A stretch of DNA of 55,608 nt, from positions 1 through 55,608 of the forward strand of contig CANNTX010000001.1 of assembly GCA_947522695.1 (NCBI GenBank), given 5' to 3'. Both the position numbers and the translations under genes were made by a program. Positions 13,586 to 28,753 of this stretch are shown piece by piece. Positions within the stretch are counted from its first letter, which is position 1. Each line of letters starts with the position of its first letter. Source of the DNA: an uncultured Bacilli bacterium. GTDB lineage: Bacteria; Bacillota_I; Bacilli_A; RF39; UBA660. The notes beneath the pieces were generated by a model. That model was not told the origin of the DNA. It ran no database searches and saw only the letters and a list, made by a program, of their open reading frames with translations.

Positions 13586-13593
13586 ATTAGGGT

Positions 13594-14478
13594 ATGAATG
13601 AATTAGATTTAATGGATAGTAGTAAAAATGATTATCAGTTGGTTACAGAACTAAGTAAAATTGTTAGAAGTTATAAAGATAAAAATAAACCAGTTGATAA
13701 AGATTTTGTTTATAAAGTTGCAAATGTGTGTTTAATTAATAATGAAGTAGATTTAAAAAATGGTTTGATAATTGTTGGTAACTCTAAAGAAATTGAAAAT
13801 GATTATGAATCTTGTTATGGTGATGATATGATTACATATTCACAATTGTCTTTGAGAAATTTTTATAAACGGATAGATAATTTTGGAAGTGCATATAATT
13901 TTGGCAATCATAATATGCTTTCTTATTATTCTGTAATATGCACTTTAATTCATGAAATATCTCATGCTAGACAGGATTATATTGCAAACAATTATCCTTA
14001 TTCATTTGCTGGAATGATTTATTCCTATTGTAGTAATGTTTTTGAAAGTGAGCCACTTTTTTATGATATATACTATGATTGTTTTCCAGAAGAAAGAAAT
14101 GCATTTCTAAGAGGAAATTATATTGCTAATATGGTAATTAAGCATGTTTATGGCTATAAATTATCACTTTTTTTCAAGGAATTATTTTTTGAAGAATTAC
14201 TTATTAATTATGACTATGATATGTATCCATTGAAAAGATTTGGTGATGCTTGTAAACAGTTTGGATATGACTATTTTGATAGATTAATTCCTGATGTTGA
14301 ACTAACTCATGAAAATTTTTTTGAACGTGTTTGGTGTGGTTATAAGGTAACTGAAGATGAATTTAATCACTTGATTGATTTATGTATTAGTATATCTTAT
14401 CCGAATAATGATGAAGTAAAAGAATATTTAAAAAAATCTTCGATAAAAAGATTAATTTTAGATTATAAAAAGAAATAA
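13594..14478 (+). CDS. hypothetical cytoplasmic protein with an HExxH motif
   Basis: TLIHEISHARQDY (nt 13951-13965); no TM or signal peptide; starts 8 nt after truA. Confidence 0.6.
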   Translation: MNELDLMDSSKNDYQLVTELSKIVRSYKDKNKPVDKDFVYKVANVCLINNEVDLKNGLIIVGNSKEIENDYESCYGDDMITYSQLSLRNFYKRIDNFGSAYNFGNHNMLSYYSVICTLIHEISHARQDYIANNYPYSFAGMIYSYCSNVFESEPLFYDIYYDCFPEERNAFLRGNYIANMVIKHVYGYKLSLFFKELFFEELLINYDYDMYPLKRFGDACKQFGYDYFDRLIPDVELTHENFFERVWCGYKVTEDEFNHLIDLCISISYPNNDEVKEYLKKSSIKRLILDYKKK

Positions 14479-14625
14479 AATTATATTTTATAATATTGAA
14501 GAAGATTTATTAGAATAATTATTTTGTTTGTTAGATCTATTATTTCTGATATTATTTTTTAAATAGGTTTATAATATAAATAGACAATAAATTAATATTT
14601 TGATATTATTTAGGTGTGATGTAGA

Positions 14626-15660
14626 ATGAATATATTAATTAATGGACATAATATTTATTTAATTTTATTAGTAACTTTTATATGTTGTGTTTTATTAGTG
14701 CCTCTTGCTAAAGTTGTAGCAAAACATATTGGAGCAATAGATATACCTAATGAGAGAAAGGTACATAAAAAACCGATGCCTAGATTGGGTGGATTAGCAA
14801 TATATTTAACATTTTTAATTGGTTATATGTTATTTGCACCTATTAACGAACAGATGATTTCAATTCTTATTGGAGGATTTATAATTATTATTCTTGGAAT
14901 ATGTGATGATATTAAACCAATTAGAGCAAGATATAAATTTTTAGTTCAGATAGTAGCTGCTTCTATTGTTGTATTTTATGGTAATATTTATTTACCTAAT
15001 ATAAGTGCTTTAGGATTATCTATTGAATTTGGTAAATTTGGTTATCCGTTAGCAATATTTTTTATTATTTCTATAATTAATGCGATAAATTTAATTGATG
15101 GTTTAGACGGACTTGCTAGTGGTACGAGTGCAATATTTTTTGCAACAATTACTATTATTGCTGTTTTACTTGATAGGTTATATGGGCTTGATGTAGTTTT
15201 ATGTGTTATTATGCTCGGCAGTACTTTAGGATTTTTAGTTTATAATAAACCGCCAGCTTCAATATTTTTAGGTGATACTGGAAGTACATTCTTAGGCTTT
15301 ATTATTGCGATTATAGCTTTGCTAGGATATAAAACTGCGACATTTACTAGTTTAATTATTCCAATATTTATTTTATTTTTACCGATACTTGACACTGTGT
15401 TTGCAATGATTAGACGCTATTTAAAGGGAGAAAATATAGGTGAGCCTGATAAGGAACATTTACATCATCAATTGCTTAAACTTAATAATAGTACTACTAA
15501 GACAGTATTAATTATGTATGGAATTGATATTCTATGTTCTGTAATAAGTGTATTATATGCTTTAGGGTATAATTTAATTGCAATTGTTTTATATTTAATT
15601 TTATTTGTATTTATATTATTTTTGATATATAAAACTGATATATTATTTAAACATAAATAG
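14626..15660 (+). CDS. tagO: glycosyltransferase family 4 polyprenyl-phosphate HexNAc-1-phosphate transferase (TagO/WecA type)
   Basis: PNERKVHKKPMPRLGGLAIY, DDIKPI, INAINLIDGLDGLA, FLGDTGS; ~10 TM segments. Confidence 0.9.
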   Translation: MNILINGHNIYLILLVTFICCVLLVPLAKVVAKHIGAIDIPNERKVHKKPMPRLGGLAIYLTFLIGYMLFAPINEQMISILIGGFIIIILGICDDIKPIRARYKFLVQIVAASIVVFYGNIYLPNISALGLSIEFGKFGYPLAIFFIISIINAINLIDGLDGLASGTSAIFFATITIIAVLLDRLYGLDVVLCVIMLGSTLGFLVYNKPPASIFLGDTGSTFLGFIIAIIALLGYKTATFTSLIIPIFILFLPILDTVFAMIRRYLKGENIGEPDKEHLHHQLLKLNNSTTKTVLIMYGIDILCSVISVLYALGYNLIAIVLYLILFVFILFLIYKTDILFKHK

Positions 15661-15718: not shown

Positions 15719-17818
15719 ATGAAGAAATTAATTAATAAAGAAAAATTAGGATATGTATTTTTAGTTTTTATGTGTTTGTCTTGTTTACTTGATTTACATA
15801 TTTTTTATAATAGATTTGCCACTTTAATAAGATTATTTTTTATTTTAATATTTTTTGGTATATCATTTATTAAATTTAGTAGTAAAAAAGATAGATTTAA
15901 ATTAATTGTTTATTTACTATTTGTACTTTTATATACTATTTTGCATTTGATATTTGTAGATAATTATTTAATGGAAGAATTATTATATATATTTAAAATG
16001 ACTTCTAATGTTTTACTTTTTTATAGTGTGTATTCGATGAATATAGATTATAAAAAATCTATTAAGTTTATTAAAATTATTCTTTGGTTTATATGTGGTT
16101 CAATAGTGTTATGTAACTTTTTAAAATTAGGTTATTCTTCTTATAATTTTAACTATTTAAAATATAATATATTTGATTGGTTTAAAAATATAAATGGATA
16201 TTTTGAAGATTTTTCTGGCAAAGGTTTCTTTCATTTAGCTAATCAAATAGTTGGAGTTGTTCTTTTATTCTATCCAATGCTTATTAATGAAGTTAAGGAA
16301 AATAAAAAAGTAATGGATATAGTTCTTCTTAATGTATGTAGTTTAAGTATGTTAATGATAGGAAATAGAACATCAAGTGCTGGTCCATTAATAATATTAA
16401 TATTTAGTTTTGTAATTTATTTGTTTCTTGTTACTATAAAAAGGGAGAAATTATCTATTAAGTATATTTTAATTTTGGTATTTAGTATGATTTTTATAAA
16501 TGTATTTTTATATAATGCGCCTATTGTTAAAAGAGATAAATATTATAACGATTTAGATAATAGTGTTGCTGATGTTAATAAAGAAGATTATATTATAACA
16601 ACTAGAGATATCCTTTTAGATAAAAATTTAAATATAAATTTTATTGATAATTATTATCCTTATGATCAAGATCAAGAATTTTGGGATAATTTAGTTAATT
16701 CAAATATTGATTTTAAAGATTCAAGATTAATTGAATTAAAGATTGCTCAAAGATTAGTTGAGTTAAGTGATAACAAATTATATAAATTTGTTGGTATAGG
16801 TTACTATAAAATTATTAGTGTTTGTAATATTGAAAGAGATTATGTAATGCAGTATTATAGTGTTGGTATTTTGGGATTAGTAATCTTTATTGGATTTTAT
16901 TTTATTATCTATATTAAAATGTTATTTAAAGTATTTATTAATTTAGATAAGAAATTTAATTATTTAAATATTATGCTTTTAAGTGGCATAGGTATTAATT
17001 TAATTGTTGCTTATTTAAGTGGGAATATTCTTAATGCTTTAAGTTCGACTATACCATTAACGATTTGTTTAGGTATTGCTTATAATGAAATTAGAGTTGA
17101 AAGATCATGTAAAGTACTTAATTATAACATCTGTAAATTAAATAGAGATGAAATTATTAATGAATTAAATAATAGTGACAATAGAAATATTTTATTTAAT
17201 ATGAATCCGATAATTATGGTAAATTTTAATGATAATAAAGAATATAAAAAATTTATTAATAAGGAAAGGTATAATATTCCTGATGGTTTTGGTACTATCG
17301 TTGGATTAAAATTTAAAGATAATAAGGGGTATAGTCAAATAACTGGTGTTGATATGTTTAATTCTTTGGTAGATAATGCATTTAAATATGGTAAGAAAAT
17401 TTATTTATATGGTGCTAAAAAAGAAGTTATTGAAAAGACTGTTAAAGTATTAAAAGAAAAGTATATTAATTTAAATATATGTGGGTATATGAGTGGATAT
17501 AGTAAAGAAAAAGATTTATTAAATGATATTAAAAAATGTAAACCAGATTATTTATTTGTTGGTATAGGATCACCTAAACAAGAAGAATTTATTATTAGAA
17601 ATGAAAAGTTGTTTAGAAATATAAGTGTTATTATGCCTGTTGGTGGTACATTTGATGTTGTATCTGGATTAAAGAAAAGAGCACCGATTATTTATCAAAA
17701 ACTACATTTAGAATGGTTATATAGAATGATTAAAGAACCTAAAAGAATTAAAGATAATGTTAAGATATTAAAATATTTATATTTGGTAATATTTAAAAAT
17801 CGAGGTAAAGATGATTAA
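15719..17818 (+). CDS. fusion protein: N-terminal polytopic O-antigen-ligase/Wzy-like membrane domain plus C-terminal WecB/TagA/CpsF (GT26) glycosyltransferase
   Basis: About 460 aa of multi-TM sequence, followed by the GT26 motifs IPDGFGTIVG, IYLYGAKKEV, FVGIGSPKQEEFI, MPVGGTFDVVSG, LEWLYRMIKEPKR. Confidence 0.8.
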   Translation: MKKLINKEKLGYVFLVFMCLSCLLDLHIFYNRFATLIRLFFILIFFGISFIKFSSKKDRFKLIVYLLFVLLYTILHLIFVDNYLMEELLYIFKMTSNVLLFYSVYSMNIDYKKSIKFIKIILWFICGSIVLCNFLKLGYSSYNFNYLKYNIFDWFKNINGYFEDFSGKGFFHLANQIVGVVLLFYPMLINEVKENKKVMDIVLLNVCSLSMLMIGNRTSSAGPLIILIFSFVIYLFLVTIKREKLSIKYILILVFSMIFINVFLYNAPIVKRDKYYNDLDNSVADVNKEDYIITTRDILLDKNLNINFIDNYYPYDQDQEFWDNLVNSNIDFKDSRLIELKIAQRLVELSDNKLYKFVGIGYYKIISVCNIERDYVMQYYSVGILGLVIFIGFYFIIYIKMLFKVFINLDKKFNYLNIMLLSGIGINLIVAYLSGNILNALSSTIPLTICLGIAYNEIRVERSCKVLNYNICKLNRDEIINELNNSDNRNILFNMNPIIMVNFNDNKEYKKFINKERYNIPDGFGTIVGLKFKDNKGYSQITGVDMFNSLVDNAFKYGKKIYLYGAKKEVIEKTVKVLKEKYINLNICGYMSGYSKEKDLLNDIKKCKPDYLFVGIGSPKQEEFIIRNEKLFRNISVIMPVGGTFDVVSGLKKRAPIIYQKLHLEWLYRMIKEPKRIKDNVKILKYLYLVIFKNRGKDD

Positions 17819-18327: not shown

Positions 18328-18771
18328 TTGAGAAAAGAAATATTGGTTTTTTCGATAATTTTAATAATTTGTCTTATTGTTTCTAAGTTTGTTTTTTCTT
18401 TTGCATTTGTTCATGGGGATTCAATGAGTCCTACATTTAGTGATAAACAGTTAATTTTTATAAATAAAACTGATAGGAATTATAATGATAATGATATTAT
18501 TATTTTTAAAAAGAAGGATCGAAAATTAATAAAAAGAGTTGTTGCAGTTCCTGGTGATAAAATTGTTATTAAAGATAGTTGTCTTTATGTTAATGATAAA
18601 TATTACGAAAATATTAATATAGAATGGTTTCATTTTAATCAAAAAGATTATCAATTAAAGGATGATGAATACTTTGTTTTAGGTGATAATTTATTAAATA
18701 GTATTGATAGTAGGTATAGTGAGATTGGTTTGGTTTATATGAATGAAATAATTGGTAAAGTAATTTGTTGA
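18328..18771 (+). CDS. lepB: signal peptidase I (S26)
   Basis: GDSMSPTF (catalytic Ser box), LIKRVVAVPGD, GDNLLNSIDSR; TTG start directly after the pseudogene stop. Confidence 0.9.
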   Translation: MRKEILVFSIILIICLIVSKFVFSFAFVHGDSMSPTFSDKQLIFINKTDRNYNDNDIIIFKKKDRKLIKRVVAVPGDKIVIKDSCLYVNDKYYENINIEWFHFNQKDYQLKDDEYFVLGDNLLNSIDSRYSEIGLVYMNEIIGKVIC

Positions 18772-18818
18772 TTATTTAAATATATGTGTTAAAATTATAT
18801 TTAGTTAGAGGGTATATT

Positions 18819-20882
18819 ATGTTGTTTAAAATTTTAGGTACGTTAATGTACTGGTGTTATGGTTTATCAGAAAATTATGGAATTGCAATTATATTTTTTA
18901 CTTTTTTAAGTAAAATAATTTTGCTTCCTATAAGTATATGGGTTCAAAAAAACTCTATTAAAATGGTTAAGATGCAGCCTGATATTTATAAAATCAAAAT
19001 TAATTATTTTGGGGATAAGGATAAGATAGCTGATGAAACATCAAAATTATATAAAAAAGAAAAATATAATGCTTTTGTTTCTTTAGTTCCATTACTTATT
19101 CAAATTGTTTTACTATTAGGAGTCGTTGAAGTAATTAATAAACCACTTACGTATATCTTAAATGTTGATAATAATGAAATTGTTTCATTAAAGGATGATA
19201 TTGTTAATAAATATGATAATTTGTCAATTGATTCTTCTTCTTTGGAACTTAACATTATTAATGAAATTAAAAATAATGATATTCATACTTTTAAAAACAT
19301 TTCTGTTTCTACTGTAAATAAAGTTCAAGATTTTAGTTTTAGTTTTTTAGGTTTTGATTTAAGCTGGATTGCTGATGTTAAAGGTGGATTATCAATTTTA
19401 ATTCCTATTATTGCAGGAATTAGTGCATTTATTATGTGTTTTGCTCAAAATTTAATGAATGTTCTACAACAAGAACAATCAAAATTTAATAAATGGTTTA
19501 TGGTAATATTTTCAGTTGCATTATCTTTATATTTAGGATATTTTGTTCCAGCTGGTGTTGCTTTATATTGGACTTCAAGTAATTTACTTGCAATTTTAAT
19601 ACAATGGTTTTTGAATATTATTATTAACCCTAAAAAATATGTTGATTATGAAAATTTAGAAAAATTACAAAAGGAATATAATGAAATTGCTTCTTTAGAT
19701 AAAAAAGTTAAGAGAAGTAAGGAACAAAAGAAAAAAGAAAAAGAAGATTATAAAAAATTCTTTAAAATTGCTAATAAACATTTAGTTTTTTATTCAGAAA
19801 GTAATGGTTTTTACAAATATTATAAAGGTATTATAGAATATTTATTAAAACATACAAATATAGTTATTCACTATATTACTAGTGATTATAATGATAATAT
19901 TTTTAATATGGAAAAAGAATATTCAAATCTTAAGGCATATTATATTGAAGAAAAAAAATTAATCACCTTAATGATGAAAATGGATGCTGATGTGGTTGTT
20001 ATGACTATGCCAGATTTAGAAAATTATCATATTAAAAAAAGTTATATTAGAAAAGATATTGTTTATGTTTATATTCCTCATGGAATTGATAGTATTAATT
20101 TAACTCAAAGATATAAATCAATAAATGCTTATGATATTTTCTTTGCTGCTGGAAAATATCAAAGAGAAGAGGCCGAAGCAACAAACAAATTATTTAATTT
20201 AAATAATAAAATCTATGATTGGGGATATACATTACTTGATGATATGGCTGACAATTATAAAGAAAAGAAATCAACTGATAAAAAATCTATTTTAATTGCT
20301 CCATCTTGGCAAAAGGACAATATTTGTGATTTATGTTTAGATCAGCTACTAAATGAAATGATGGTTAATGAAAACTATAATATAATAGTTAGACCACATC
20401 CTCAAGAAGTGAGACATAAAGCAGAAAAATTTGAAGCATTAAAAGAAAAGTATAAAAATAATAAAAATGTATATATTCAAACTGATTTTTCAAATAATTC
20501 ATCTATATTGGATGCTGATTTATTGATTACTGATTGGTCTGGAATTTGTTATGAATATGCATTTACTACTAAAAAACCGGTTGTATTTATAAATACACCA
20601 ATGAAAATTATGAATCCAAACTATAAGGATATAAACATAGAACCTTATTCTATTTGGTCTAGAGATGTGATTGGAAAAAGTATTGAGGTAGATAATATAA
20701 GTAAAGAATTAAATAATGATATAGATTATTTATTAAAAAACAAAGATAAATATACTAAAAAAATAGATGATTTGTATCATGATTCAATATATAATATTGG
20801 AAATTCTGGAGAAGTTGGTGCTAAATACTTAGTTGAAATAATAAAAAGTAAAATTGACGAAAGGAGAAAAAATGAAAAATAA
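18819..20882 (+). CDS. fusion protein: N-terminal YidC/Oxa1-type membrane insertase domain plus C-terminal CDP-glycerol glycerophosphotransferase (TagB/TagF-like) domain
   Basis: YidC-like region: GIAIIFFTFLSKIILLPISIWVQKNSIKMVKMQPD...LYKKEKYNAF...GVALYWTSSNLLAILIQ. TagF-like region: ILIAPSWQKDN, IIVRPHPQ, LITDWSGICYEYAFTTKKPVVF. The ATG at 18819 follows an AGAGGG RBS (track start 18786). Confidence 0.8.
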   Translation: MLFKILGTLMYWCYGLSENYGIAIIFFTFLSKIILLPISIWVQKNSIKMVKMQPDIYKIKINYFGDKDKIADETSKLYKKEKYNAFVSLVPLLIQIVLLLGVVEVINKPLTYILNVDNNEIVSLKDDIVNKYDNLSIDSSSLELNIINEIKNNDIHTFKNISVSTVNKVQDFSFSFLGFDLSWIADVKGGLSILIPIIAGISAFIMCFAQNLMNVLQQEQSKFNKWFMVIFSVALSLYLGYFVPAGVALYWTSSNLLAILIQWFLNIIINPKKYVDYENLEKLQKEYNEIASLDKKVKRSKEQKKKEKEDYKKFFKIANKHLVFYSESNGFYKYYKGIIEYLLKHTNIVIHYITSDYNDNIFNMEKEYSNLKAYYIEEKKLITLMMKMDADVVVMTMPDLENYHIKKSYIRKDIVYVYIPHGIDSINLTQRYKSINAYDIFFAAGKYQREEAEATNKLFNLNNKIYDWGYTLLDDMADNYKEKKSTDKKSILIAPSWQKDNICDLCLDQLLNEMMVNENYNIIVRPHPQEVRHKAEKFEALKEKYKNNKNVYIQTDFSNNSSILDADLLITDWSGICYEYAFTTKKPVVFINTPMKIMNPNYKDINIEPYSIWSRDVIGKSIEVDNISKELNNDIDYLLKNKDKYTKKIDDLYHDSIYNIGNSGEVGAKYLVEIIKSKIDERRKNEK

Positions 20883-21135
20883 AATTTGTAAATTTGGTAT
20901 GATTATTTTCTTTTCATTTTCATTTATGATTTTATTTAGTGATAATGTACTTGCTTATATTGATCCGTCTGTTATGACTTACGCCATACAGGCAATAGCA
21001 GGAATTGTTATTGCAATAGGTGCTTTTGTTGGTATATATTTTAGAAAAATTAAAAAGAATGTTACTAATAAATTAGGCATTGATGAAAATAAAAATAAAG
21101 AAATTGAATCAGACGAGATTAAAATTGAAAAATAA
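20872..21135 (+). CDS. small hypothetical membrane protein (2 TM segments)
   Basis: AGGAG RBS before the ATG at 20872; overlaps the upstream stop by 11 nt; hydrophobic segments FGMIIFFSFSFMILF and AIAGIVIAIGAFVGIYF. Confidence 0.55.
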   Translation: MKNKICKFGMIIFFSFSFMILFSDNVLAYIDPSVMTYAIQAIAGIVIAIGAFVGIYFRKIKKNVTNKLGIDENKNKEIESDEIKIEK

Positions 21136-21144
21136 TTATATATT

Positions 21145-21170
21145 AACACTCTATTTTGAGTGTTTTTTAT
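21145..21170 (+). terminator. rho-independent terminator closing the tagO-to-YidC/TagF gene string
   Basis: AACACTC-TATTTT-GAGTGTT followed by T5. Confidence 0.65.
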
Positions 21171-21235
21171 TGAAGTGTTCAAAAAAAGATGTTATTATTT
21201 AATTATGAACAAAATATAGTATAGGAGTTGATTGT

Positions 21236-22213
21236 ATGAAAAAATACATATGTTTAATATTTTTGTTTATTTTATTAATTACAACTGGTTGTTCAAAAAA
21301 AGCTGGTCAAGTTGTAATTTATACATCTATGGAGGAAAATCGTAATAAGGCTTTAAAAGAGCAATTAGCTGAAAAGTTTCCTGATAAAGATATAGTTGTT
21401 CAATATTTATCAACTGGAAATAGTGCTGCAAAGATAAAAAATGAAGGCACAAATGTAGAAGCCGATATTATACTTGATTTGGAAACTGCTCATATGGTTG
21501 AACTAGAAGAAAATTTTGCTGATTTATCATCTTTTGATACAAGTATTTATCTTGATGGAGTTAATAAATCAAATAGATATTTAACTTGGACTAAATATAC
21601 TATGGCATTAATTATTGATAAAAACTATTTTGATAAGCATAATTTATCAGTACCAAAAACTTATGATGATTTGTTAAAATCTGAATATAGGAATTTAATT
21701 GCTATTCCTGATCCTAAAACATCAGGAACTGGTTATGCATTTTATTTAAATGCTGTTAATATAATGGGTGAAGATAACGCTATTGAGTATTTTAAGAAAT
21801 TAAAAAACAATTTAAGAGAATTTACAACATCTGGTTCTGGGCCTACAAACTTATTAAAACAAGGTGAAATAGCTATTGCAATGGGAATGACAAGTCAAGG
21901 GGTAGAAGCTATAAATGAAGGTTATAATTTTAAAATTGTTTCTTTAAAAACTGGTGCACCATATAATACTACTAGTTTTGGTATTATTAAGGGAAGAGAA
22001 AACAAAGAAAATGTACGTGAAGTTTTTGAGTGGTTAATGAATGATTTTGGAAAATATGATAAAGAGTATTATCTTCCTGATAAGATTCTTAAAAATCAAG
22101 AAGTTAAAGTTAAAAATTATCCTACAAATTTAAAAGATGCAAAAATGGATGGTATAGATAGTGTTAGCGTCAAACAAGATTTAATTAGCAAGTGGGAAAA
22201 AGTTAATGGCTAG
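21236..22213 (+). CDS. ABC importer substrate-binding lipoprotein (Fe3+/thiamine/2-aminoethylphosphonate-type SBP family)
   Basis: Lipobox LLITTGCS; VVIYTSMEENRNKAL and DPKTSGTGYAFYL motifs typical of this SBP class. Confidence 0.75.
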   Translation: MKKYICLIFLFILLITTGCSKKAGQVVIYTSMEENRNKALKEQLAEKFPDKDIVVQYLSTGNSAAKIKNEGTNVEADIILDLETAHMVELEENFADLSSFDTSIYLDGVNKSNRYLTWTKYTMALIIDKNYFDKHNLSVPKTYDDLLKSEYRNLIAIPDPKTSGTGYAFYLNAVNIMGEDNAIEYFKKLKNNLREFTTSGSGPTNLLKQGEIAIAMGMTSQGVEAINEGYNFKIVSLKTGAPYNTTSFGIIKGRENKENVREVFEWLMNDFGKYDKEYYLPDKILKNQEVKVKNYPTNLKDAKMDGIDSVSVKQDLISKWEKVNG

Positions 22214-22967
22214 TATTGAGGTTAAAAATATTTCAAAAATTTTTGATAATAAATTAGTATTAAATAATTTGAATTTTAATGTTAGTGATGGAGAATTATT
22301 ATCTATACTGGGTAAATCAGGTTGTGGTAAAACAACTTTGTTAAAAATATTAATTGGAATTGAAAAACCTTCTAGTGGAATTATTTTAAAAAATAATAAA
22401 AATATTACAAAATATGATATTTCTAAAAGAGGAATGGGAATCGTTTTTCAAAATTATGCATTATTTCCAAATATGACTGTTCTTGAAAATGTTTCTTATG
22501 CTCTAAATAATAAATTGAAAGATAAGAAGAAGGCCAATGAACAAGCAATGGATATTATTTCGATGGTTAATTTAGATGATCATATTAATAAATATCCAAA
22601 TGAGTTATCTGGTGGTCAGATGCAAAGAGTTGCAATTGCTAGAACGTTAGCTCTTAAACCTGATGTTATTTTGTTTGATGAAGCATTAAGCGCATTGGAT
22701 GCGGAAAATAAAATAATTCTTAGAAATAAAATAAGAGAACTTAATAAAAAATTTAATATTACAATGATTTTTATTACTCATGATCAAGAAGAAGCATTTT
22801 CGATATCCGATCGTGTGATGATAATGAATGATGGTTGTATTGAACAAATTGATAAACCAAGTGAAATTTTTAAACATCCTGCATCAAAGTATGTAGAAGA
22901 TTTTGTAGTCAAACACTTAAAAGAAAAAGTAACATCAATTCAAAAATGTGTTAAGGTTGATATGTGA
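22206..22967 (+). CDS. ABC transporter ATP-binding protein
   Basis: GKSGCGKTT, LSGGQMQRVAIAR, ILFDEALSALD, ITHDQEEA; overlaps the SBP gene by 8 nt. Confidence 0.9.
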   Translation: MASIEVKNISKIFDNKLVLNNLNFNVSDGELLSILGKSGCGKTTLLKILIGIEKPSSGIILKNNKNITKYDISKRGMGIVFQNYALFPNMTVLENVSYALNNKLKDKKKANEQAMDIISMVNLDDHINKYPNELSGGQMQRVAIARTLALKPDVILFDEALSALDAENKIILRNKIRELNKKFNITMIFITHDQEEAFSISDRVMIMNDGCIEQIDKPSEIFKHPASKYVEDFVVKHLKEKVTSIQKCVKVDM

Positions 22968-24547
22968 TGAAAAAAATTAAAATAAGTAAAACAGGAGGAT
23001 TAGTGTTATTATTTTTAATCTTTTCTGTTTTATTTCCAATTTCAAAATTGTTTATTTACGTTAAGTGGGATACTTTTGGCAAGTTAGTTACTTCTGAAGC
23101 TTTTATAACTGCATCTAAAAATTCACTTTTAGTAGCATCTATCTCAACAGTTCTATCTGTTTTAATTGCATATATTCTTGCTTATACTTTGAATAGAGTT
23201 AATATTAAATTTAAAAAGTTTTTTAAGATTGTATTTGTACTTCCAATGCTTATTCCATCTGTATCACATGGTCTAGGTTTAATTAATCTGTTTGGTAATA
23301 ATGGAATTATATCAAGATATTTTGATTTTAACATTATCGGACCTATTGGTATTATAATTGGATCAATAATGTATTCTTTTCCAGTTGCATTTTTAATGTT
23401 GGCTGATGGATTTAAATATATTGATAATAATATGTATTATGTTTCAAAATCGCTTAATTTAAATAATTTTCAAATATTTAAAAATGTTACTTTGGTTTAT
23501 TTGAAAAAATCTATTCTATCATCTATATTTGCTGTGTTTACTATGATTTTTACTGATTATGGTGTTCCAATAGCGGTAGGTGGAAAATTTAATACTTTAC
23601 CTGTATTTTTATATAAAGAAGTTATTGGTTTACTAGATTTTTCAAAAGGAACTATGATTGCTATGTTTTTACTTATTCCTGCAATAATTTCTTTTTTAGT
23701 TGATACTTTTGTTAAGGATTATAATAATGAAAATACTGGTAATAAAGATTATTATAGTTCTAATAAAGTTTTATCTATATTTTTAAAGTCATTTGTTGTT
23801 TTGATTATGATTTTAATTTTTGTTGTACTTGGATCATTTGTTTATTATGCATTTGTTGATAATGTTGTACTAAATAATTCGTTTTCTTTAAAGCACTTTG
23901 AATATGTATCTGAAAATGGTATATTTGATTATTTATTAAATTCATTAGTTATTTCTTTGTTTGTGGCAATAATCGGAACATTTATTTCTTATTTTGCTGC
24001 TTATAATACGGCTAGAATTAAAGGAAAAATGTCTAAAGTAATTCATTTATTTACAATAATTACTTTAGCTATACCTGGTATCGTATTGGGGCTTGCTTAT
24101 ACGATTTGTTTTAGAGGAACTTTTATTGCTAATACTTTTACTATAATTATAATTTGTAACATTGTACACTTTATAGCATCACCTTATTTAATGGCTTATA
24201 ATGCACTTTTAAAAGTTAATAATAATTATGAAGTTGTTGCTTCAACATTAAATATAAGTAAATTTAAAATTATTATGGATGTTATTATTCCTTGTACTAA
24301 GAGTACTATTATAGAAATGTTTTCTTATTTTTTTGTTAATAGTATGATTACAATTTCAGCTGTTACATTCTTATATACAGCTTCAACAATGCCTATTTCA
24401 TTATTAATAAATAATTATGAAGGAAACATGATGTTAGGAGAAGCTGCAATTGTTTCTATTATAATTTTATTTATTAATTTATTGATTAAATTTATTGGTA
24501 ATATTATTATTTCAAAAGATAGAAAGAAGGTTTATGTTAATGATTAA
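22964..24547 (+). CDS. ABC transporter permease, fused double-domain (about 12 TM) type
   Basis: 527 aa, highly hydrophobic, with two repeated permease halves; the start overlaps the ATPase stop (GTGATGA). Confidence 0.85.
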   Translation: MMKKIKISKTGGLVLLFLIFSVLFPISKLFIYVKWDTFGKLVTSEAFITASKNSLLVASISTVLSVLIAYILAYTLNRVNIKFKKFFKIVFVLPMLIPSVSHGLGLINLFGNNGIISRYFDFNIIGPIGIIIGSIMYSFPVAFLMLADGFKYIDNNMYYVSKSLNLNNFQIFKNVTLVYLKKSILSSIFAVFTMIFTDYGVPIAVGGKFNTLPVFLYKEVIGLLDFSKGTMIAMFLLIPAIISFLVDTFVKDYNNENTGNKDYYSSNKVLSIFLKSFVVLIMILIFVVLGSFVYYAFVDNVVLNNSFSLKHFEYVSENGIFDYLLNSLVISLFVAIIGTFISYFAAYNTARIKGKMSKVIHLFTIITLAIPGIVLGLAYTICFRGTFIANTFTIIIICNIVHFIASPYLMAYNALLKVNNNYEVVASTLNISKFKIIMDVIIPCTKSTIIEMFSYFFVNSMITISAVTFLYTASTMPISLLINNYEGNMMLGEAAIVSIIILFINLLIKFIGNIIISKDRKKVYVND

Positions 24548-25430
24548 TGAAAATGAATTTGAGGTATTGGTTTGCTTAGAAAAGGAAAAAAGAAATATTT
24601 CTCAACGTGAAATATCTAAAATTACAGGATTGTCATTAGGCACTGTTAACAAAAGTTATTCTAATTTAATAAATAATGGTTTTATTGGTAGTAATGGATT
24701 AATTACTGATAGTGGTATTAATACTTTGGAACCATATAGAGTTAAAAGAGCAATATTTTTAGCAGCTGGTTTCGGTTCGCGAATGGTTCCAATTACATTA
24801 AATACTCCTAAACCTTTAGTTAGAGTAAATGGTAAAAGAATTATTGAAACTCTATTAGATGCTGTTAGTGTTGCTGAAATTCCTGAAATTGTTATTGTTA
24901 CTGGATATTTAAGTGAACAATTTGATATTTTATGCAATAAATATCCTAATATAAAAATTGTTTATAATAAACATTATAATGAAATGAATAATATATCATC
25001 TGCCTATGCTGTTAAAGATTTATTTCAAAATGCATATGTTATGGAGTCTGATCTTGTATTATATAATCCAAATATTATTAGAAAGTATGAATATCATTCT
25101 AACTTTTTAGGAAAAAAAGTTGATGTTACAGATGATTGGTGTTTTGATGCTAAAAATGGGATTATAGTAAGAGAAAAACAGGGTGGTTATAATTGTTATC
25201 AAATGTATGGCATATCATATTATGATGAAGATGATGGCAAGAAAATAGCTAATGATTTAGAAAAAGTTATTAATATGCCTGGCGGCAAAGAAAAGTATTG
25301 GGAACAAGTTGTATTAGATGTTTGTAAAAATAATTATAAAATCTATGTTAAAGAATGTCATGATGGTGATATAATAGAAATAGATTCATTTAATGAATTA
25401 AAAAAGATTGACAAATCTTATGATGTGTAA
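24534..25430 (+). CDS. winged-HTH plus LicC-like nucleotidyl (cytidylyl) transferase
   Basis: N-terminal wHTH ISQREISKITGLSLGTVNKSYSNLINNGFI, then the NTP-transferase motif AIFLAAGFGSRMVPITLNTPKPLVRVNGKRIIE. The start overlaps the permease 3' end. Confidence 0.8.
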   Translation: MLMINENEFEVLVCLEKEKRNISQREISKITGLSLGTVNKSYSNLINNGFIGSNGLITDSGINTLEPYRVKRAIFLAAGFGSRMVPITLNTPKPLVRVNGKRIIETLLDAVSVAEIPEIVIVTGYLSEQFDILCNKYPNIKIVYNKHYNEMNNISSAYAVKDLFQNAYVMESDLVLYNPNIIRKYEYHSNFLGKKVDVTDDWCFDAKNGIIVREKQGGYNCYQMYGISYYDEDDGKKIANDLEKVINMPGGKEKYWEQVVLDVCKNNYKIYVKECHDGDIIEIDSFNELKKIDKSYDV

Positions 25431-25448
25431 TTGGGAGTTGTTTGATGA

Positions 25449-27080
25449 ATGAAAAAATTTAAATTTAAGGATTTAATATTTCCTTCAATTGTTTCTTTTG
25501 TATTGTCATTTATGTTGGTTATTTATGAACCAATTATTACATATGCTGCAAATACGGATGATTATTGGTTTAGTTTTAAAACATTAATTTTAAACAATTT
25601 ATTGTTATTTTTGATATTATTTTTTGTAGGTGTTATTTTTAGTGTTATAGTGTACTTTTTAACATTATTACTTAATAAAAGAAGTTTATATAATTTATAT
25701 TTAATTTTATTATTTGTTACATTTATTACTACATATATTCAAGGTAATTTTTTGGCTGGTTCTTTACCAACCCTAGATGGTTCTCCTATTATTTGGAATG
25801 ATTATACTAAACAAGGTGCTTTATCCGTTGCTTTATTGTGTATACTACTTGGTTTAAGTACATTCTTATTTGTTAAATATAAAGAAAAAGTTTTTACTTA
25901 TATGAAATATATATCATTTGCTGTTTTTGCGATGTTATTTGTTAGTTTAAGTACCACTTTATTAACAAGTAAAGATATATATGCAAATAAGGGAACAATT
26001 ACTGCTACTAATGATAATATAACTAATTTATCAGAAAATAAAAATTTTTTAATTTTACTTGTTGATATGGCTGATTCTAAAACATTTGATAAAGTTTTAA
26101 AACAAGTGAATAAGGAAGATATTTTTAAAGATTTTACATATTTTCCTGATACATTGGCGGCATATCCATTTACTCGTGAATCTATCCCATTTATTCTATC
26201 TGGTGAATGGTTTGAGGAACAAAAATCTTTTACAGATTACTATAATGATGCATTAAATAATTCGAAATTTTTAGAAGAACTAAAAAAGCAAAATTATGAT
26301 ATAAATATTTATGAAAGTGATTTAAATTGGACTGATAATAAAGCACTAGATGTTAATAATATTAAGGATATTAATTTTGCCATTGATAAAATTTCTTTAT
26401 ATAAGCAAGAGTTTAAATATATTTTATTTAAATATTTGCCTTTTCCTTTAAAGAAATATTCTAAAGTTGAATGGATTGATTATAAGTTATGTAGAAAAGA
26501 AAATCTCGATTCTGATAATCTATTTAATATGGATAATAAAGTAAATTATGATTTGTTGGATGAAGTTAATATTCAAAAAAGTAATTATTTTCAATTTTTA
26601 CATATAGACGGAGGTCATTATCCATGGGATTCTGATTCCAATTTTAATAAGGTAGAAAATGGTACTTATGAGCAAAAAATCGAGGCTTCAATTAAGGTTA
26701 TTGATAAGTATATTAAAAGAATAAAAGATGCTAAATTATATGATAATTCAGTAATAATGGTTCTTGCAGATCACGGAAATAATGGTTATGATCCTGTTGG
26801 AAGACAAAATCCAATTCTATATATTAAAGGTGTAAATGAAAAACATAATAAATTATTTGTGTCTAACAAAAAAGTTTCTTATACTGATTTAAATGATTCT
26901 ATTTATTATGATTTATTAAATGGCAAAAATAGTTCCGAATTATTACCGGAAGTTCAAAAAAATAGAATTAGAAGATTTATTTGGTATAAAGATTATGATG
27001 AATTATACGAACAATTTTTAGATGGTCATGCTTGGGAAACGAATAAATTAAAAAATTCTGGCAAAAAATATGGTAAATAA
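25449..27080 (+). CDS. polytopic membrane protein with an extracytoplasmic sulfatase/alkaline-phosphatase-superfamily domain (LtaS/EptA-like transferase)
   Basis: About 6 N-terminal TM segments, then FLILLVDMADS, LHIDGGHYPWD and MVLADHGNN, which resemble the metal/nucleophile and HxxGxHxP / DHG motifs of phospho-headgroup transferases. Confidence 0.7.
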   Translation: MKKFKFKDLIFPSIVSFVLSFMLVIYEPIITYAANTDDYWFSFKTLILNNLLLFLILFFVGVIFSVIVYFLTLLLNKRSLYNLYLILLFVTFITTYIQGNFLAGSLPTLDGSPIIWNDYTKQGALSVALLCILLGLSTFLFVKYKEKVFTYMKYISFAVFAMLFVSLSTTLLTSKDIYANKGTITATNDNITNLSENKNFLILLVDMADSKTFDKVLKQVNKEDIFKDFTYFPDTLAAYPFTRESIPFILSGEWFEEQKSFTDYYNDALNNSKFLEELKKQNYDINIYESDLNWTDNKALDVNNIKDINFAIDKISLYKQEFKYILFKYLPFPLKKYSKVEWIDYKLCRKENLDSDNLFNMDNKVNYDLLDEVNIQKSNYFQFLHIDGGHYPWDSDSNFNKVENGTYEQKIEASIKVIDKYIKRIKDAKLYDNSVIMVLADHGNNGYDPVGRQNPILYIKGVNEKHNKLFVSNKKVSYTDLNDSIYYDLLNGKNSSELLPEVQKNRIRRFIWYKDYDELYEQFLDGHAWETNKLKNSGKKYGK

Positions 27081-27086
27081 GCTATT

Positions 27087-27115
27087 AAAAGTGATAAATT
27101 ATCACTTTTTTCTTT
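27087..27115 (+). terminator. rho-independent terminator closing the five-gene importer operon
   Basis: AAAAGTGATA-AAT-TATCACTTTT hairpin followed by TTCTTTT. Confidence 0.65.
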
Positions 27116-27158
27116 TAAAGATTTTATATTATTGTTATAATTAATTAGAGGTTAATAT

Positions 27159-27956
27159 ATGAAAAGAATAATAAATAATTTAAAATATGTATATAAGAAA
27201 TATTCTTTTTTACTTGAACAATTGGTTTCAAGAGATTTTAAAGTAAAGTATAAAAGAAGTATTTTAGGTGTTCTTTGGAGTTTGTTATATCCTGTTTTAA
27301 TGATGTCTGTTATGGCAGTTGTATTTTCAAATGTTTTTAAATTTTCTACACCTGGTGTTAGTTATTTAGCATATTTACTTATAGGACTAACATATTTTAA
27401 CTATTTTACTGAGGCAAGTAATTTGGCTATGAGTAGTGTTGTTGCTAATTTTAGTTTAATTAATAAAGTATATATTCCAAAATATATATTTCCACTTTCA
27501 AAATGTATTTTTGTTGGAATTAATTTTCTTCTTACATTAATTCCATTATACATAGTAATTATTGCGACTGGTACTGGACTTAATTGGTATCATTTGTTAT
27601 TACCTTTTTCTTTTATTTGTTTATTTTTATTTACGATAGGAATGGGTTTTATACTTGCAACTATTTCTGTATTTTTAAGAGATATGTTTTATATTTACGG
27701 AATCGTAACAACAATTTGGAATTATTTAACCCCTATTATGTATGATATAAATATTATATCGAATCCTACATTACAATTATTAATGAAATTTAATCCAATG
27801 TATCAATTTATTAATTTTGCAAGAACTATTATTCTATATCATAATTGTCCGACATTAGGTCAATTTTTAGGATGCTCTATATCTTCAATTGTTGTATTTA
27901 TAATTGGATGTATTTTATTTAAAAAGAAACAAGATAAATTTATTTATTATGTATAA
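27159..27956 (+). CDS. tagG: ABC-2 type polysaccharide/teichoic acid export permease
   Basis: 265 aa, 6 TM segments, N-terminal LVSRDFKVKYKRSILGVLWSLL motif characteristic of TagG/Wzm. Confidence 0.85.
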   Translation: MKRIINNLKYVYKKYSFLLEQLVSRDFKVKYKRSILGVLWSLLYPVLMMSVMAVVFSNVFKFSTPGVSYLAYLLIGLTYFNYFTEASNLAMSSVVANFSLINKVYIPKYIFPLSKCIFVGINFLLTLIPLYIVIIATGTGLNWYHLLLPFSFICLFLFTIGMGFILATISVFLRDMFYIYGIVTTIWNYLTPIMYDINIISNPTLQLLMKFNPMYQFINFARTIILYHNCPTLGQFLGCSISSIVVFIIGCILFKKKQDKFIYYV

Positions 27957-27970
27957 GAGGTGAATGTTAA

Positions 27971-28753
27971 ATGGTAAATTCTAAAAACGAATTAACTAAC
28001 ATTGATAATAATTTTAATCCAATGATTGAGGTTAAAGATGTTTCTATGAAATTTAATTTAGGAATTGAAAAAGGTTTTTCTATTAAACAATGGTTTGTAG
28101 ATATAGGAAAACATAAGAATAAAGTCAATAATGATTTTTGGGCTTTAAAAAACATTAATTTTAATATTAATAAAGGAGAAGTTATTGGTTTTATTGGATC
28201 TAATGGGGCTGGCAAATCTACATTATTAAAGGTTGTAGCTGGTGTAATGAAGCCAACAATTGGAAAGGTAAATGTTTATGGAAATATTTGTCCCATGATT
28301 GAGTTGGGTGCTGGGTTTGATTATCAACTAACTGCCAAAGAAAATATTTATTTGAATGGTGCTGTATTAGGATATTCTAAGGAATTAATTGATAAAAAGT
28401 TTGATGAAATTGTTGAATTTTCTGAACTTAAAGATTTCTTAGATGTTCCTGTTCAAAATTTTTCTTCCGGTATGGTTGCAAGACTTGCTTTTAGTATCGC
28501 TACAATTGTTAATCCAGAAATTCTTATTGTTGATGAGATTTTATCAGTTGGTGATATCGCTTTTCAAGCTAAAAGTGAAGCTAAGATGTTGGAAATGATT
28601 GGTGGAGGAACAACTGTATTGTTTGTTTCACATTCAGTTGAGCAAATTAAGAAAATGTGTGATAGAGTAATATGGTTAGATCATGGCAAAATGATAAAAA
28701 TGGGTGGAAAAGAAATTTGTGATGAATATATTGAATTTATGAAGGGAAAATAA
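27971..28753 (+). CDS. tagH: teichoic acid/polysaccharide export ABC ATP-binding protein
   Basis: GSNGAGKST, FSSGMVARLAFSIA, ILIVDEILSVGD, VSHSVEQI (TagH/Wzt-type motif variants). Confidence 0.9.
   Translation: MVNSKNELTNIDNNFNPMIEVKDVSMKFNLGIEKGFSIKQWFVDIGKHKNKVNNDFWALKNINFNINKGEVIGFIGSNGAGKSTLLKVVAGVMKPTIGKVNVYGNICPMIELGAGFDYQLTAKENIYLNGAVLGYSKELIDKKFDEIVEFSELKDFLDVPVQNFSSGMVARLAFSIATIVNPEILIVDEILSVGDIAFQAKSEAKMLEMIGGGTTVLFVSHSVEQIKKMCDRVIWLDHGKMIKMGGKEICDEYIEFMKGK

Follow-up and report, generated by a model that had tools for sequence, protein, structure and literature searches.

We analyzed a five-gene operon on a 55,608-nucleotide stretch of DNA from an uncultured Bacilli bacterium (contig CANNTX010000001.1 of assembly GCA_947522695.1; the whole stretch is called the window below). 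The operon encodes the substrate-binding protein (SBP), ATPase, and fused permease of an ABC importer (genes 1 to 3), a LicC/PntC-type cytidylyltransferase with an N-terminal winged helix-turn-helix (wHTH) domain (gene 4), and a polytopic membrane protein with a sulfatase-like domain, here named SulfL (gene 5). Genes 1 to 4 are a recurring supply unit in dozens of metagenome-assembled genomes (MAGs) of uncultured gut Firmicutes. SulfL belongs to a second unit, together with a YidC-TagF fusion and a small membrane protein encoded upstream of the operon. The features are collected in Table 1.

Table 1. Features of the operon, of its surroundings in the window, and of the supply modules found in related loci (L numbers; aa, amino acids; GT, glycosyltransferase; NTase, nucleotidyltransferase; PLP, pyridoxal phosphate)
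Feature	Position	Strand	Remarks
Sigma-70-type promoter-like site	21170..21198	+	TTGAAG, 17 nt, TATTAT, upstream TG
Operator-like inverted repeat	21176..21211	+	TGTTCA-N24-TGAACA; proposed site for the gene 4 wHTH
SBP lipoprotein of importer (gene 1)	21236..22213	+	SBP_bac_1
ABC ATPase (gene 2)	22206..22967	+	ABC_tran
Fused double permease (gene 3)	22964..24547	+	Two BPD_transp_1 halves
wHTH + LicC/PntC-type cytidylyltransferase (gene 4); proposed enzyme and autorepressor	24534..25430, probable start 24540	+	HTH_24, NTP_transferase
SulfL (gene 5); proposed outer-face phospho-headgroup transferase	25449..27080	+	Pfam Sulfatase, fold match
Intrinsic terminator closing the operon	27087..27118	+	Hairpin 27087-27109, then TTCTTTT
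Signal peptidase I (S26) paralog, frequent neighbor of the attachment unit	18328..18771	+	Peptidase_S26, E 7e-32
YidC (N-terminal, about 300 aa)-TagF-like fusion, 698 aa; proposed headgroup consumer	18786..20882	+	
Small procoat-like membrane protein	20854..21135 (93-aa ORF), probable start MKNK at 20872	+	
Intrinsic terminator closing the YidC-TagF/small-protein unit	21145..21170	+	Pattern scan, folding
TagO-like GT4	14626-15660		
O-antigen-ligase-like membrane domain fused to TagA/WecG	15719-17818		Unusual fusion
TagG/TagH-like ABC-2 exporter	27159..28753	+	ABC2_membrane + ABC_tran
Unknown protein, 424 aa	29784-31058		No Pfam family
HAD phosphatase-GtrA membrane domain fusion	34994-35989		Unusual fusion
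CDP-alcohol phosphatidyltransferase	36000-36632		Nearest models PssA, archaetidylserine synthase
Supply module A			Importer + wHTH-LicC
Supply module B	L001 111-1925, L003 2108-3925, L013 10911-12728, L145 3629-5446		605-aa NTase-PLP enzyme fusion
Supply module C	L146 12384-14804		Class-V aminotransferase + GFO_IDH_MocA oxidoreductase/TagD-like CTP_transf_like fusion; directly after the small gene
Supply module D	L123 4054-5660, L137 3975-5635		LicA-like kinase + short wHTH-less LicC

A preliminary description of this region had depicted five co-directional, translationally coupled open reading frames (ORFs) between two intrinsic terminators, and our data confirmed this picture. The ATPase gene, with its ATG at 22206, overlaps the SBP stop codon (22211-22213); the permease gene, starting at GTG 22964 or possibly at ATG 22967, overlaps the ATPase stop codon (22965-22967); and both ATG 24534 and ATG 24540 of gene 4 overlap the permease stop codon (24545-24547). 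The true start of gene 4 is more likely ATG 24540, because a GAAGG sequence sits at ribosome-binding-site spacing 10 nt 5′ of it and because the 96%-identical homolog P0121 has the corresponding length of 296 aa. Genes 4 and 5 are separated by 18 nt, with GGGAG (25433-25437) before the ATG at 25449, and folding of this spacer showed no secondary structure. Of the two bracketing terminators, the hairpin at 21145-21164 with its T-run reaches -8.6 kcal/mol (z = -3.8) and the one at 27087-27109 with its T-run reaches -8.0 kcal/mol (z = -3.7), 1 of 200 shuffles being as stable in each case. A terminator pattern scan picked up the 21145 hairpin only, the 27087 hairpin being too AT-rich for it. The G+C content of the window DNA is 21 to 30%, and its closest named relatives, gut MAGs, carry the labels "uncultured Tenericutes bacterium" or "uncultured Bacilli bacterium." The domains originally assigned to the five products were confirmed by profile searches, supplemented for gene 4 by PDB matches and for SulfL by an AlphaFold model.

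Conservation was followed in a genome scan centered on gene 4, which yielded 55 loci from gut and rumen MAGs of Bacilli, Erysipelotrichaceae, Clostridia, and Christensenellaceae, and in a metagenome scan centered on SulfL, which yielded 78 loci. All homologs derive from uncultured MAGs, the loci lack phylogenetic independence, and most of the contigs without partner genes for SulfL are short. The SBP, ATPase, and permease genes lie directly 5′ of the wHTH-LicC gene in 37 of the 55 loci, a permease of the APC family lies directly 3′ of it in 11 to 12 loci from Clostridia, and one or the other importer stands beside the enzyme in 34 of the 36 loci with enough flank. A choline-kinase (Brenner) motif was found in none of the 55 LicC-centered loci, although the same search did flag LicA-like ORFs in L123 and L137. 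A Pfam scan of 115 unannotated neighbors showed no recurrent kinase among the top 25 of 168 families, with the motif search covering the remainder. These counts agree with the original suggestion that a ready-made phosphonate or phosphoester is imported and activated directly.

The preliminary description had also treated the five genes as one block and had itself taken a lack of conservation of that block as evidence against its proposal. The block is indeed not conserved, because genes 1 to 4 and gene 5 belong to different units. Around SulfL homologs of 63%, 51%, and 46% identity, the ABC and LicC genes do not adjoin SulfL, and the unit has the order SulfL, YidC-TagF, and a small protein of 65 to 95 aa, in some cases preceded by a signal peptidase gene. 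Across the 78 SulfL-centered loci, SulfL is adjoined by a YidC domain in 54, by a TagF domain in 51, and by the small protein in 43; a signal peptidase gene lies directly 5′ of SulfL or YidC-TagF in 17 of the 78, and likewise in L001-L004, L145, and L146. In the window, the ABC-LicC module separates the gene of the small protein from that of SulfL. The gene order of the window recurs in L145, where an NTase-PLP fusion replaces ABC-LicC, and in L071, L096, and L135 an insertion of ABC-LicC or of LicC alone splits the small gene from YidC-TagF. YidC-TagF, usually with SulfL, was also found within 10 kb of wHTH-LicC in 10 LicC-centered loci from distant lineages and in varied orders, among them compact Clostridia clusters in which SulfL, YidC-TagF, the small protein, LicC, and an APC permease are grouped. 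The domains are shuffled in L045, where the gene after LicC encodes a separate PF04464 protein and the next one a membrane protein that joins a YidC domain to an alkaline-phosphatase fold. A further arrangement, which fits none of these partner classes, was seen in rumen Erysipelotrichaceae MAGs (L046, L049, and L065), where the genes downstream of ABC-LicC encode an unknown protein of 529 aa and a GHMP kinase that resembles galactokinase.

Other relatives follow the canonical arrangement, in which the module is followed by LicD, Wzx, and glycosyltransferase genes (11 to 14 gene-4-centered loci). LicD lies beside LicC in 11 loci and YidC-TagF in 10, with no locus shared, a distribution that is suggestive of mutual exclusion between the two routes (one-sided Fisher test, p = 0.07, not significant). 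With LicD absent from the window and the two routes not found together beside the enzyme in relatives, the non-LicD route put forward originally is plausible.

Gene 4, for which more than 7,700 enzyme homologs were found, carries the public annotation "sugar phosphate nucleotidyltransferase." Its N-terminal domain matches HTH_24 (E 1.6e-9). The best PDB match of the enzyme is Streptococcus pneumoniae LicC (1JYK, E 2e-32) over its full length (residues 65-294), followed by Treponema denticola PntC-AEPT (6PD1, E 7e-11), and its motif LAAGFGSRM aligns with LAAGLGTRL of LicC, so that the G-x-G-(S/T)-R motif is present. Sugar-1-phosphate enzymes align with gene 4 over the N-terminal nucleotide-binding motif only. 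The LicC-type identity assigned at the outset is thus upheld, and a grouping with GlmU/RmlA-type enzymes, which had been named as one of the outcomes that would refute the proposal, does not apply.

The residues that contact the substrate amine allow a closer look at specificity. In T. denticola PntC, Glu104 and Glu196 contact the primary amine of 2-aminoethylphosphonate (AEP), and in LicC the shorter Asp105 and Asp192 leave space for the trimethylammonium group of phosphocholine (ChoP), which LicC favors 200-fold over AEP (Rice et al. 2019, PMC6697681). Among 53 members of the gene 4 family, the position of LicC D105 is Glu in all 53, that of D192 is Glu in 51, and that of Y85 is Ala, Thr, Met, Gly, or Ser throughout; the window enzyme has Glu (VMESD), Glu (KYWEQ), and Met, respectively. 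The family retains W136 and, in the "YWD" motif, the YW pair. The kinase-linked, wHTH-less short LicCs of L123 and L137 have Asp/Asp at the amine-contact positions, and the NTase that is fused to a PLP enzyme in relatives has Glu/Glu (LLESD and YYE). A primary-amine substrate that is already phosphorylated or is a phosphonate is favored because of the Glu/Glu signature, the lack of a kinase, the AEP-type importer models described below, and the exchange of the ABC importer for an amino-acid-type APC permease. Judging from these features, the substrate of gene 4 is most likely AEP or phosphoethanolamine. Neither phosphoenolpyruvate (PEP) mutase (ppm) nor another family of carbon-phosphorus (C-P) biosynthesis was found among the window ORFs or the recurrent neighbors.

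Another possible headgroup is phosphocholine itself. In this scenario, the importer would bring in phosphocholine (or choline, which an unlinked LicA would phosphorylate), gene 4 would be a true LicC, and an unlinked LicD or the TagF-like domain would attach ChoP. The full-length best match to pneumococcal LicC and the conserved W136 and YW of "YWD" agree with such a function, as do the many relatives with an adjoining LicD, which is closest to the model of the Mycoplasma fermentans cholinephosphotransferase Mf1 (below its cut-off), and the pairing of SulfL and YidC-TagF with LicA and a choline-type LicC in L123 and L137. However, both amine-contact Asp residues of LicC are Glu family-wide and Y85 is lost, while the kinase-linked LicCs keep Asp/Asp; a kinase is found in 0 of the 55 loci; the importer is nearest to AEP-type models and not to the choline-type OpuAC/ProX; and the alternative supply modules probably make primary amines. 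We consider phosphocholine decoration unlikely.

The importer had been described as having the architecture used by Fe3+, thiamine, and 2-AEP importers. The best NCBIfam matches of all three proteins are the models of the putative AEP importer PhnS2/T2/U2, yet every score lies below its cut-off: the SBP reaches 155.7 bits against 392.75 (PhnS2), the ATPase 308.9 against 457.7 (PhnT2), and the permease 368.7 against 593.25 (PhnU2, with ThiP second). Thiamine, iron, and polyamine models rank below the Phn2-type models for genes 1 to 3. At the family level, the SBP matches SBP_bac_1 (E 9e-21) and shows the lipobox LITTGC in its sequence, and the ATPase matches ABC_tran (E 1e-36). The top PDB match of the SBP, 8X1A, is annotated as an iron(III)-binding protein, and a literature search on this entry found nothing relevant; further PDB relatives include proteins that, by depositor name, bind phosphorylated ligands (pyridoxal-5-phosphate-binding, 2-AEP-binding, and thiamine-binding proteins).

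The PhnS2T2U2 models derive from catabolic AEP clusters. This origin, like the iron(III)-binding annotation of 8X1A, would suit a nutritional importer for phosphonate or for iron or thiamine that has nothing to do with envelope decoration. However, phnW, phnX, and phnA-type genes are all absent from the window ORFs, and the transporter genes are translationally coupled to a cytidylyltransferase gene and conserved with it in 37 loci. Thiamine models, moreover, score much lower. A purely nutritional role appears extremely improbable, and transporters that resemble PhnS2T2U2 should be annotated with caution, as they may be noncatabolic.

The operon also appears to be controlled by its own enzyme, a point absent from the preliminary description. 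A perfect inverted repeat, TGTTCA (21176-21181) and TGAACA (21206-21211), flanks the -10 box of the promoter-like site before the SBP gene. Three matches to this repeat were found in the window against 0.32 expected, and the one at 21176-21211 is the sole intergenic one. In relatives, GTTCA-N24-25-TGAAC precedes the SBP gene at 28 of the 37 loci with ABC genes, compared with a mean of 0.16 and a maximum of 2 in shuffled sequences, and the promoter layout TTGACA ... TATAAT is kept at the same place. Where the ABC genes are missing, the repeat lies directly 5′ of wHTH-LicC (L011, L016, L040, L048, L051, L053-L055, L057, and L071), and L123 and L137, which have a wHTH-less LicC, do not contain it. 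The consensus from 46 distinct instances reads TTGaca-TGTTCA-N13-tatAAT-N7-TGAACA; instances at the start of the importer/LicC unit come from the window, L007-L071, L101, L109, and L135. The wHTH of gene 4 is the only DNA-binding domain that travels with the repeat, and because it alone accompanies this conserved element, gene 4 would be an enzyme-repressor of the BirA/NadR type. Its wHTH is probably an autorepressor, and the operator is simple and conserved enough to make this regulatory hypothesis directly testable.

With respect to the second unit, the fusion protein is annotated publicly only as "membrane protein insertase YidC." Its YidC domain is well supported (60KD_IMP PF02096, E 1e-34; TIGR03592, 113 bits against a cut-off of 84.3) and has an invariant Lys43 at the groove position, where canonical YidC proteins have Arg. 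The C-terminal 398 residues match PF04464, the family of CDP-glycerol glycerophosphotransferases (TagF), with 42.6 bits against a cut-off of 22.1. In a PDB sequence search this TagF-like domain returned only noise; the relation is seen by fold search, in which the AlphaFold model of the fusion (predicted local distance difference test [pLDDT] 83.6) is matched best by TagF (3L7I/3L7J, E 1e-11) and then by TarL and the Bcs3 capsule polymerase. H432 (PHG), PSWQ 506-509, RPHP 536-539 (H538), and (T)DWS 583-585 are invariant in 23 YidC-TagF homologs. These may be the counterparts of the TagF motifs HG, PTW(R), HP, and TDYS, the putative correspondence to TagF H444 and H584 being one of motif resemblance. 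Given how YidC is known to be oriented in the membrane, the TagF-like domain should be cytoplasmic. Many gut MAGs carry the fusion, with 62 to 72% identity among the matches listed, and a literature search for a YidC-TagF fusion found none.

The small protein is far better conserved than SulfL or YidC-TagF, its mature part being at least 90% invariant among 50 distinct homologs, compared with 32 to 66% for SulfL and 60 to 72% for YidC-TagF. It has a variable leader ending in Ala, followed by YIDPSVMTY, a transmembrane (TM) segment, and the motif DENKNKEVE[ST]D.I with an acidic tail, and it matches no Pfam family above cut-off. This topology resembles that of the M13 procoat, which is inserted and processed by YidC and signal peptidase; genes for a YidC domain and a signal peptidase also lie beside that of the small protein.

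SulfL is related to known families mainly by fold. Its Pfam Sulfatase match is borderline (25.2 bits against a cut-off of 25), it has no NCBIfam match, and no PDB sequence match falls below E 0.28. The AlphaFold model (pLDDT 90.1) has helices at 6-173 and an alkaline-phosphatase-fold domain at 183-543, so that about 5 TM helices precede an extracytoplasmic domain of the alkaline-phosphatase superfamily, in which a Thr nucleophile motif is present. Its top Foldseek match is full-length PbgA/YejM, followed by MCR-1, LtaS, and sulfatases. The SulfL family comprises 743 cluster representatives at E <= 1e-30, and D206, T242, H385, H390, D441, and H442 are invariant among 29 homologs, the pattern expected of a metal site with a Thr nucleophile. 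D206/T242/D441/H442 may correspond to LtaS E255/T300/D475/H476.

With an odd number of helices ahead of it, the catalytic domain is expected on the outer side of the membrane, as in LtaS and EptA, and it should therefore make no direct use of a cytoplasmic CDP donor. The original reading needs correction on this point: the sulfatase-fold domain would not reach the CDP donor, and the most likely direct consumer of the activated headgroup is the cytoplasmic TagF-like domain.

Two further observations concern relatives of SulfL. Many homologs of 640 to 850 aa, as well as P0383 (919 aa) and P0404 (841 aa), have N-terminal extensions of 100 to 380 aa; P0404 and P0383 were considered as further YidC fusions and rejected, their extensions not being YidC, and the extension of P0383 looks by eye like an acyltransferase-3-type membrane domain. 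Another membrane protein of the sulfatase family, about 587 aa long, unrelated to SulfL and with a strong PF00884 match, is found repeatedly beside the same ABC-LicC module, together with LicD, Wzx, and a sulfotransferase-like protein of 351 aa (L013, L020, L023, L026, L028-L030, L035, L042, L064, and L007 at 13500-15260).

The two units are also linked by the presence of a cytidylyltransferase module in 13 of 15 SulfL-centered loci with long flanks and YidC-TagF. Four kinds of module accompany the attachment unit (Table 1), A to C being defined from the 13 long loci and D from the shorter loci L123 and L137. In module B, the nearest relatives of the PLP domain are CobD, HisC, and PDB 6OUX, a "threonine phosphate decarboxylase-like enzyme," and the module probably supplies a CDP-amino-alcohol de novo. 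6OUX may be a serine-phosphate decarboxylase; a literature search on serine-phosphate decarboxylase found nothing. Module C, which also occurs in L072, L078, L085, L086, L088, L100, L107, and L133, could be a route to a CDP-serinol-type donor. Module D lies directly after SulfL and YidC-TagF in L123 and L137, where the LicA-like kinase shows the motif HIDAVPDNFLI...LIDFEY, which shows that a supply of the choline type can accompany the attachment unit too.

These associations bear on two other explanations for the unit. First, SulfL, YidC-TagF, and the small protein may form a general envelope unit that uses CDP-glycerol or phosphatidylglycerol, for instance to prime or polymerize a glycerophosphate polymer, the LicC product going to another transferase. 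The nonconservation of the five-gene block would be explained in this way, and the region from TagO to HAD-GtrA is a variable cassette site in which envelope genes could simply cluster, as comparison of L012 and L059 with the window indicates. PF04464 proteins are classically users of CDP-glycerol or CDP-ribitol, TagF and TarL structures having been deposited with those donors; L005, L073, and L119 have no cytidylyltransferase nearby; and the Fisher test for LicD and TagF is not significant. What makes such independence unlikely in our view is that the supply modules of the 13 loci often adjoin the unit or lie inside it, that a fourth module type does so in L123 and L137, that compact stand-alone clusters exist in distant Clostridia lineages, and that the window has no TagD/TarI-type enzyme.

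Second, SulfL could be a scavenging phosphodiesterase of the outer face, similar to NPP or phospholipase C, that frees lipid headgroups of host, diet, or neighboring cells for the importer. Its place in the importer operon of this genome and its extracytoplasmic domain with an intact metal/nucleophile motif would be consistent with this role, which would also account for a kinase not being needed. Yet SulfL is tied to YidC-TagF and not to importers, it is associated equally with de novo supply modules, where scavenging would be superfluous, and its polytopic N-terminal domain is like those of the lipid-donor transferases LtaS, EptA, and MCR-1, and of PbgA. We regard scavenging by SulfL as very unlikely.

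Considering these data, we propose a model in which a salvaged amino-phosphonate or amino-phosphate is activated with CTP without a kinase and attached without LicD by two cooperating modules, and we judge the chances that it is correct to be even. The salvage operon would comprise 21170-25430, extended to 27080 in this genome. First, the PhnS2T2U2-like importer would take up a preformed zwitterionic compound, AEP or phosphoethanolamine, which the LicC/PntC-type enzyme would turn directly into a CMP or CDP conjugate, a kinase being unneeded. The winged helix of gene 4 would bind TGTTCA-N24-TGAACA over the promoter, so that the operon would be autoregulated. The place of LicD would be taken by an attachment machine of YidC-TagF, small protein, SulfL, and often signal peptidase I. 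That the TagF-like domain uses the activated headgroup is the simplest reading, with YidC, the small protein, and SulfL acting alongside it. The cytoplasmic TagF-like domain would move the phospho-headgroup from the CDP or CMP donor onto an acceptor in the membrane, which could be a lipid or the small protein; the YidC-like domain and the small protein would present the loaded acceptor at the outer face; and the LtaS/EptA-like SulfL would transfer or finish the headgroup on a teichoic-acid-like polymer exported by TagGH. This wall polymer is probably the one being decorated. We infer the acceptor and this division of labor from the architecture of the proteins, and we hold the relay of TagF loading, YidC/small-protein presentation, and SulfL transfer only tentatively, at something short of even chances at best. 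A more specific version, in which the small protein is a dedicated headgroup carrier or adaptor that is loaded by TagF (itself or by way of a lipid that it holds), inserted and processed by YidC and signal peptidase so that its load comes to lie outside, and unloaded by SulfL onto the wall polymer, is decidedly unlikely, though it would amount to a new insertase-based transmembrane modification relay with four interchangeable donor-supply cassettes and a metabolite-sensing enzyme-repressor.

Several points weigh against the model. The roles of all of these proteins are predicted from comparing the genomes of MAGs. That of SulfL is drawn by analogy, and PbgA/YejM, to which its fold is closest, is not a known transferase. 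Scores of the transporter proteins fall far short of the equivalog cut-offs, so that AEP specificity is at most likely, and W136 and YW are residues that the gene 4 family shares with LicC. The Glu/Glu signature derives from one crystal structure, and Ari-PntC retains the aromatic residues of LicC, selectivity having been argued to be mainly steric (PMC6697681). Relatives often pair the same module with LicD, and the consumer may accordingly be an unlinked LicD outside the 55.6-kb window. The LicD/TagF exclusion is only suggestive, with a p value of 0.07 among loci that are phylogenetically nonindependent. L005, L073, and L119 carry SulfL and YidC-TagF with no cytidylyltransferase within 10 kb. 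Finally, L045 is the sole case of a fusion between YidC and an alkaline-phosphatase-fold protein, which is only weakly SulfL-like (E 2e-4).

The setting of the operon is teichoic-acid-like, as originally described, with a TagO-like GT4, a TagA/WecG fusion, a TagG/TagH-like exporter, and MnaA. Downstream of TagG/TagH follow a GT2, the 424-aa unknown protein, a flavin amine-oxidase-like protein, MnaA, a GT1, HAD-GtrA, and the CDP-alcohol phosphatidyltransferase. The order SulfL, TagG, TagH, GT2 is also found in L145, L069, and L074. Family scans of the 47 ORFs in the window that are 100 aa or longer detected no LicA, LicD, PEP mutase, TagD, or TarI, and a search of the window for the choline-kinase (Brenner) motif was negative as well, in agreement with the earlier statement on LicA and LicD. 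There is also no CTP_transf_like or IspD-type enzyme in the window, which leaves the LicC-like protein as the sole cytidylyltransferase there. The CDP-alcohol phosphatidyltransferase was considered as a consumer of the CDP-headgroup that would make a Kennedy-type lipid donor for SulfL and rejected, being PssA-like and part of a conserved cassette flank; together with HAD-GtrA it co-occurs with LicC only in the syntenic L012 and L059.

Compared with these two loci, the region from TagO to HAD-GtrA and the PssA-like gene (14626-36632) is a variable glycopolymer cassette, with syntenic flanks and wholly different content; the L012 cassette contains a 970-aa O-antigen-ligase-like/GT1/Alg14 fusion and an Alg13-like gene. 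Identities to the window are mosaic in L069 (SBP 99%, LicC 95%, YidC-TagF 93 to 96%, SulfL 65%) and in L012 (ABC genes 94 to 97%, LicC 79%), which points to recombination within the locus. Four window ORFs have no Pfam family, namely, those at 5925-8114 (minus strand, 729 aa), 12246-12863 (205 aa), and 13594-14478 (294 aa) and the 424-aa ORF, which keeps its place after TagH-GT2 in L001, L003, and L145.

Surface phosphocholine, phosphoethanolamine, and AEP shape the recognition of bacteria by the host immune system, and LicABCD is, to our knowledge, the only well-understood cytoplasmic route for such headgroups. If our model is correct, a kinase-free route of importer and cytidylyltransferase would be new and would be widespread in uncultured Firmicutes of human and animal guts. 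A scavenged phosphonate or phosphoester would then link surface chemistry to diet and to neighboring microbes, and the LicD-independent attachment machine, so far unannotated, may prove new in kind. The preliminary description had not recognized the gene combination as a described pathway, and our literature search agrees: it found Lic-1, Pnt, and PptA-type alkaline-phosphatase-fold transferases, and neither a kinase-free pairing of an importer with LicC nor an attachment unit of the YidC-TagF/SulfL type was among the systems described.

Among known systems, Lic-1 of S. pneumoniae and Haemophilus influenzae (LicA, LicB, LicC, and LicD) shares with the window the activation of a zwitterionic phospho-headgroup by a LicC-fold enzyme and CTP for a surface glycan. 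In contrast to Lic-1, the window has no LicA, LicB, or LicD; import would be by an ABC system resembling PhnS2T2U2, or by an APC permease in some relatives, instead of by LicB; its enzyme has Glu/Glu amine contacts where LicC has Asp/Asp, along with an N-terminal wHTH and a conserved operator; and a TagF-like/YidC/alkaline-phosphatase-fold unit stands in the place of LicD. The Pnt pathway (Ppm, Ppd, and AEPT with PntC; PMC6697681) likewise has a LicC-like enzyme with Glu at both AEP-amine positions and follows the same logic of nucleotidyl activation for cell-surface tailoring. Unlike that pathway, the window has no nearby PEP mutase or C-P genes, so that the headgroup would be salvaged and not made, and gene 4 is nearer to LicC than to T. 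denticola PntC. The PhnS2/PhnT2/PhnU2 importer (TIGR03261, TIGR03265, TIGR03262) has the same composition of an SBP, one ATPase, and one fused double permease, whereas the window system scores 40 to 67% of the equivalog cut-offs and is coupled to a cytidylyltransferase and not to phnW/phnX catabolic genes. BirA and NadR are also nucleotidyl-transferring enzymes with an N-terminal HTH or wHTH and an operator over the promoter of a salvage or transport operon; gene 4 differs from them in enzyme family and ligand, and its binding is putative.

The attachment unit has partial counterparts as well. With TagF, TagB, and TarL the fusion shares the PF04464 domain and a TagF-like fold, and its conserved residues resemble their motifs, but in the window this domain forms one protein with a YidC insertase domain, comes together with a membrane protein of the alkaline-phosphatase fold and an invariant small protein, and lies in a locus without TagD or TarI. 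LtaS, EptA/MCR-1, and PbgA (YejM) have about 5 N-terminal TM helices and an extracytoplasmic alkaline-phosphatase-fold domain in common with SulfL, whose invariant Asp...Thr...Asp-His residues may form a comparable metal/nucleophile site; it differs in lacking sequence-level membership in these families (no NCBIfam match, Pfam Sulfatase at threshold) and in its conserved partners, YidC-TagF and the small protein, which are unlike theirs. The idea of a small protein as carrier or adaptor resembles DltX of D-alanylation. A precedent for pairing a nucleotidyltransferase with a TagF-like protein and a nonglycerol headgroup exists in Clostridioides difficile, where the nucleotidyltransferase CD0242 and the TagF-like CD0244 have been proposed to form a CDP-threonine route (PMC10714395). 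In conclusion, the system in the window would appear, on the strength of these comparisons, to be a previously undescribed variant of Lic/Pnt-type headgroup decoration.

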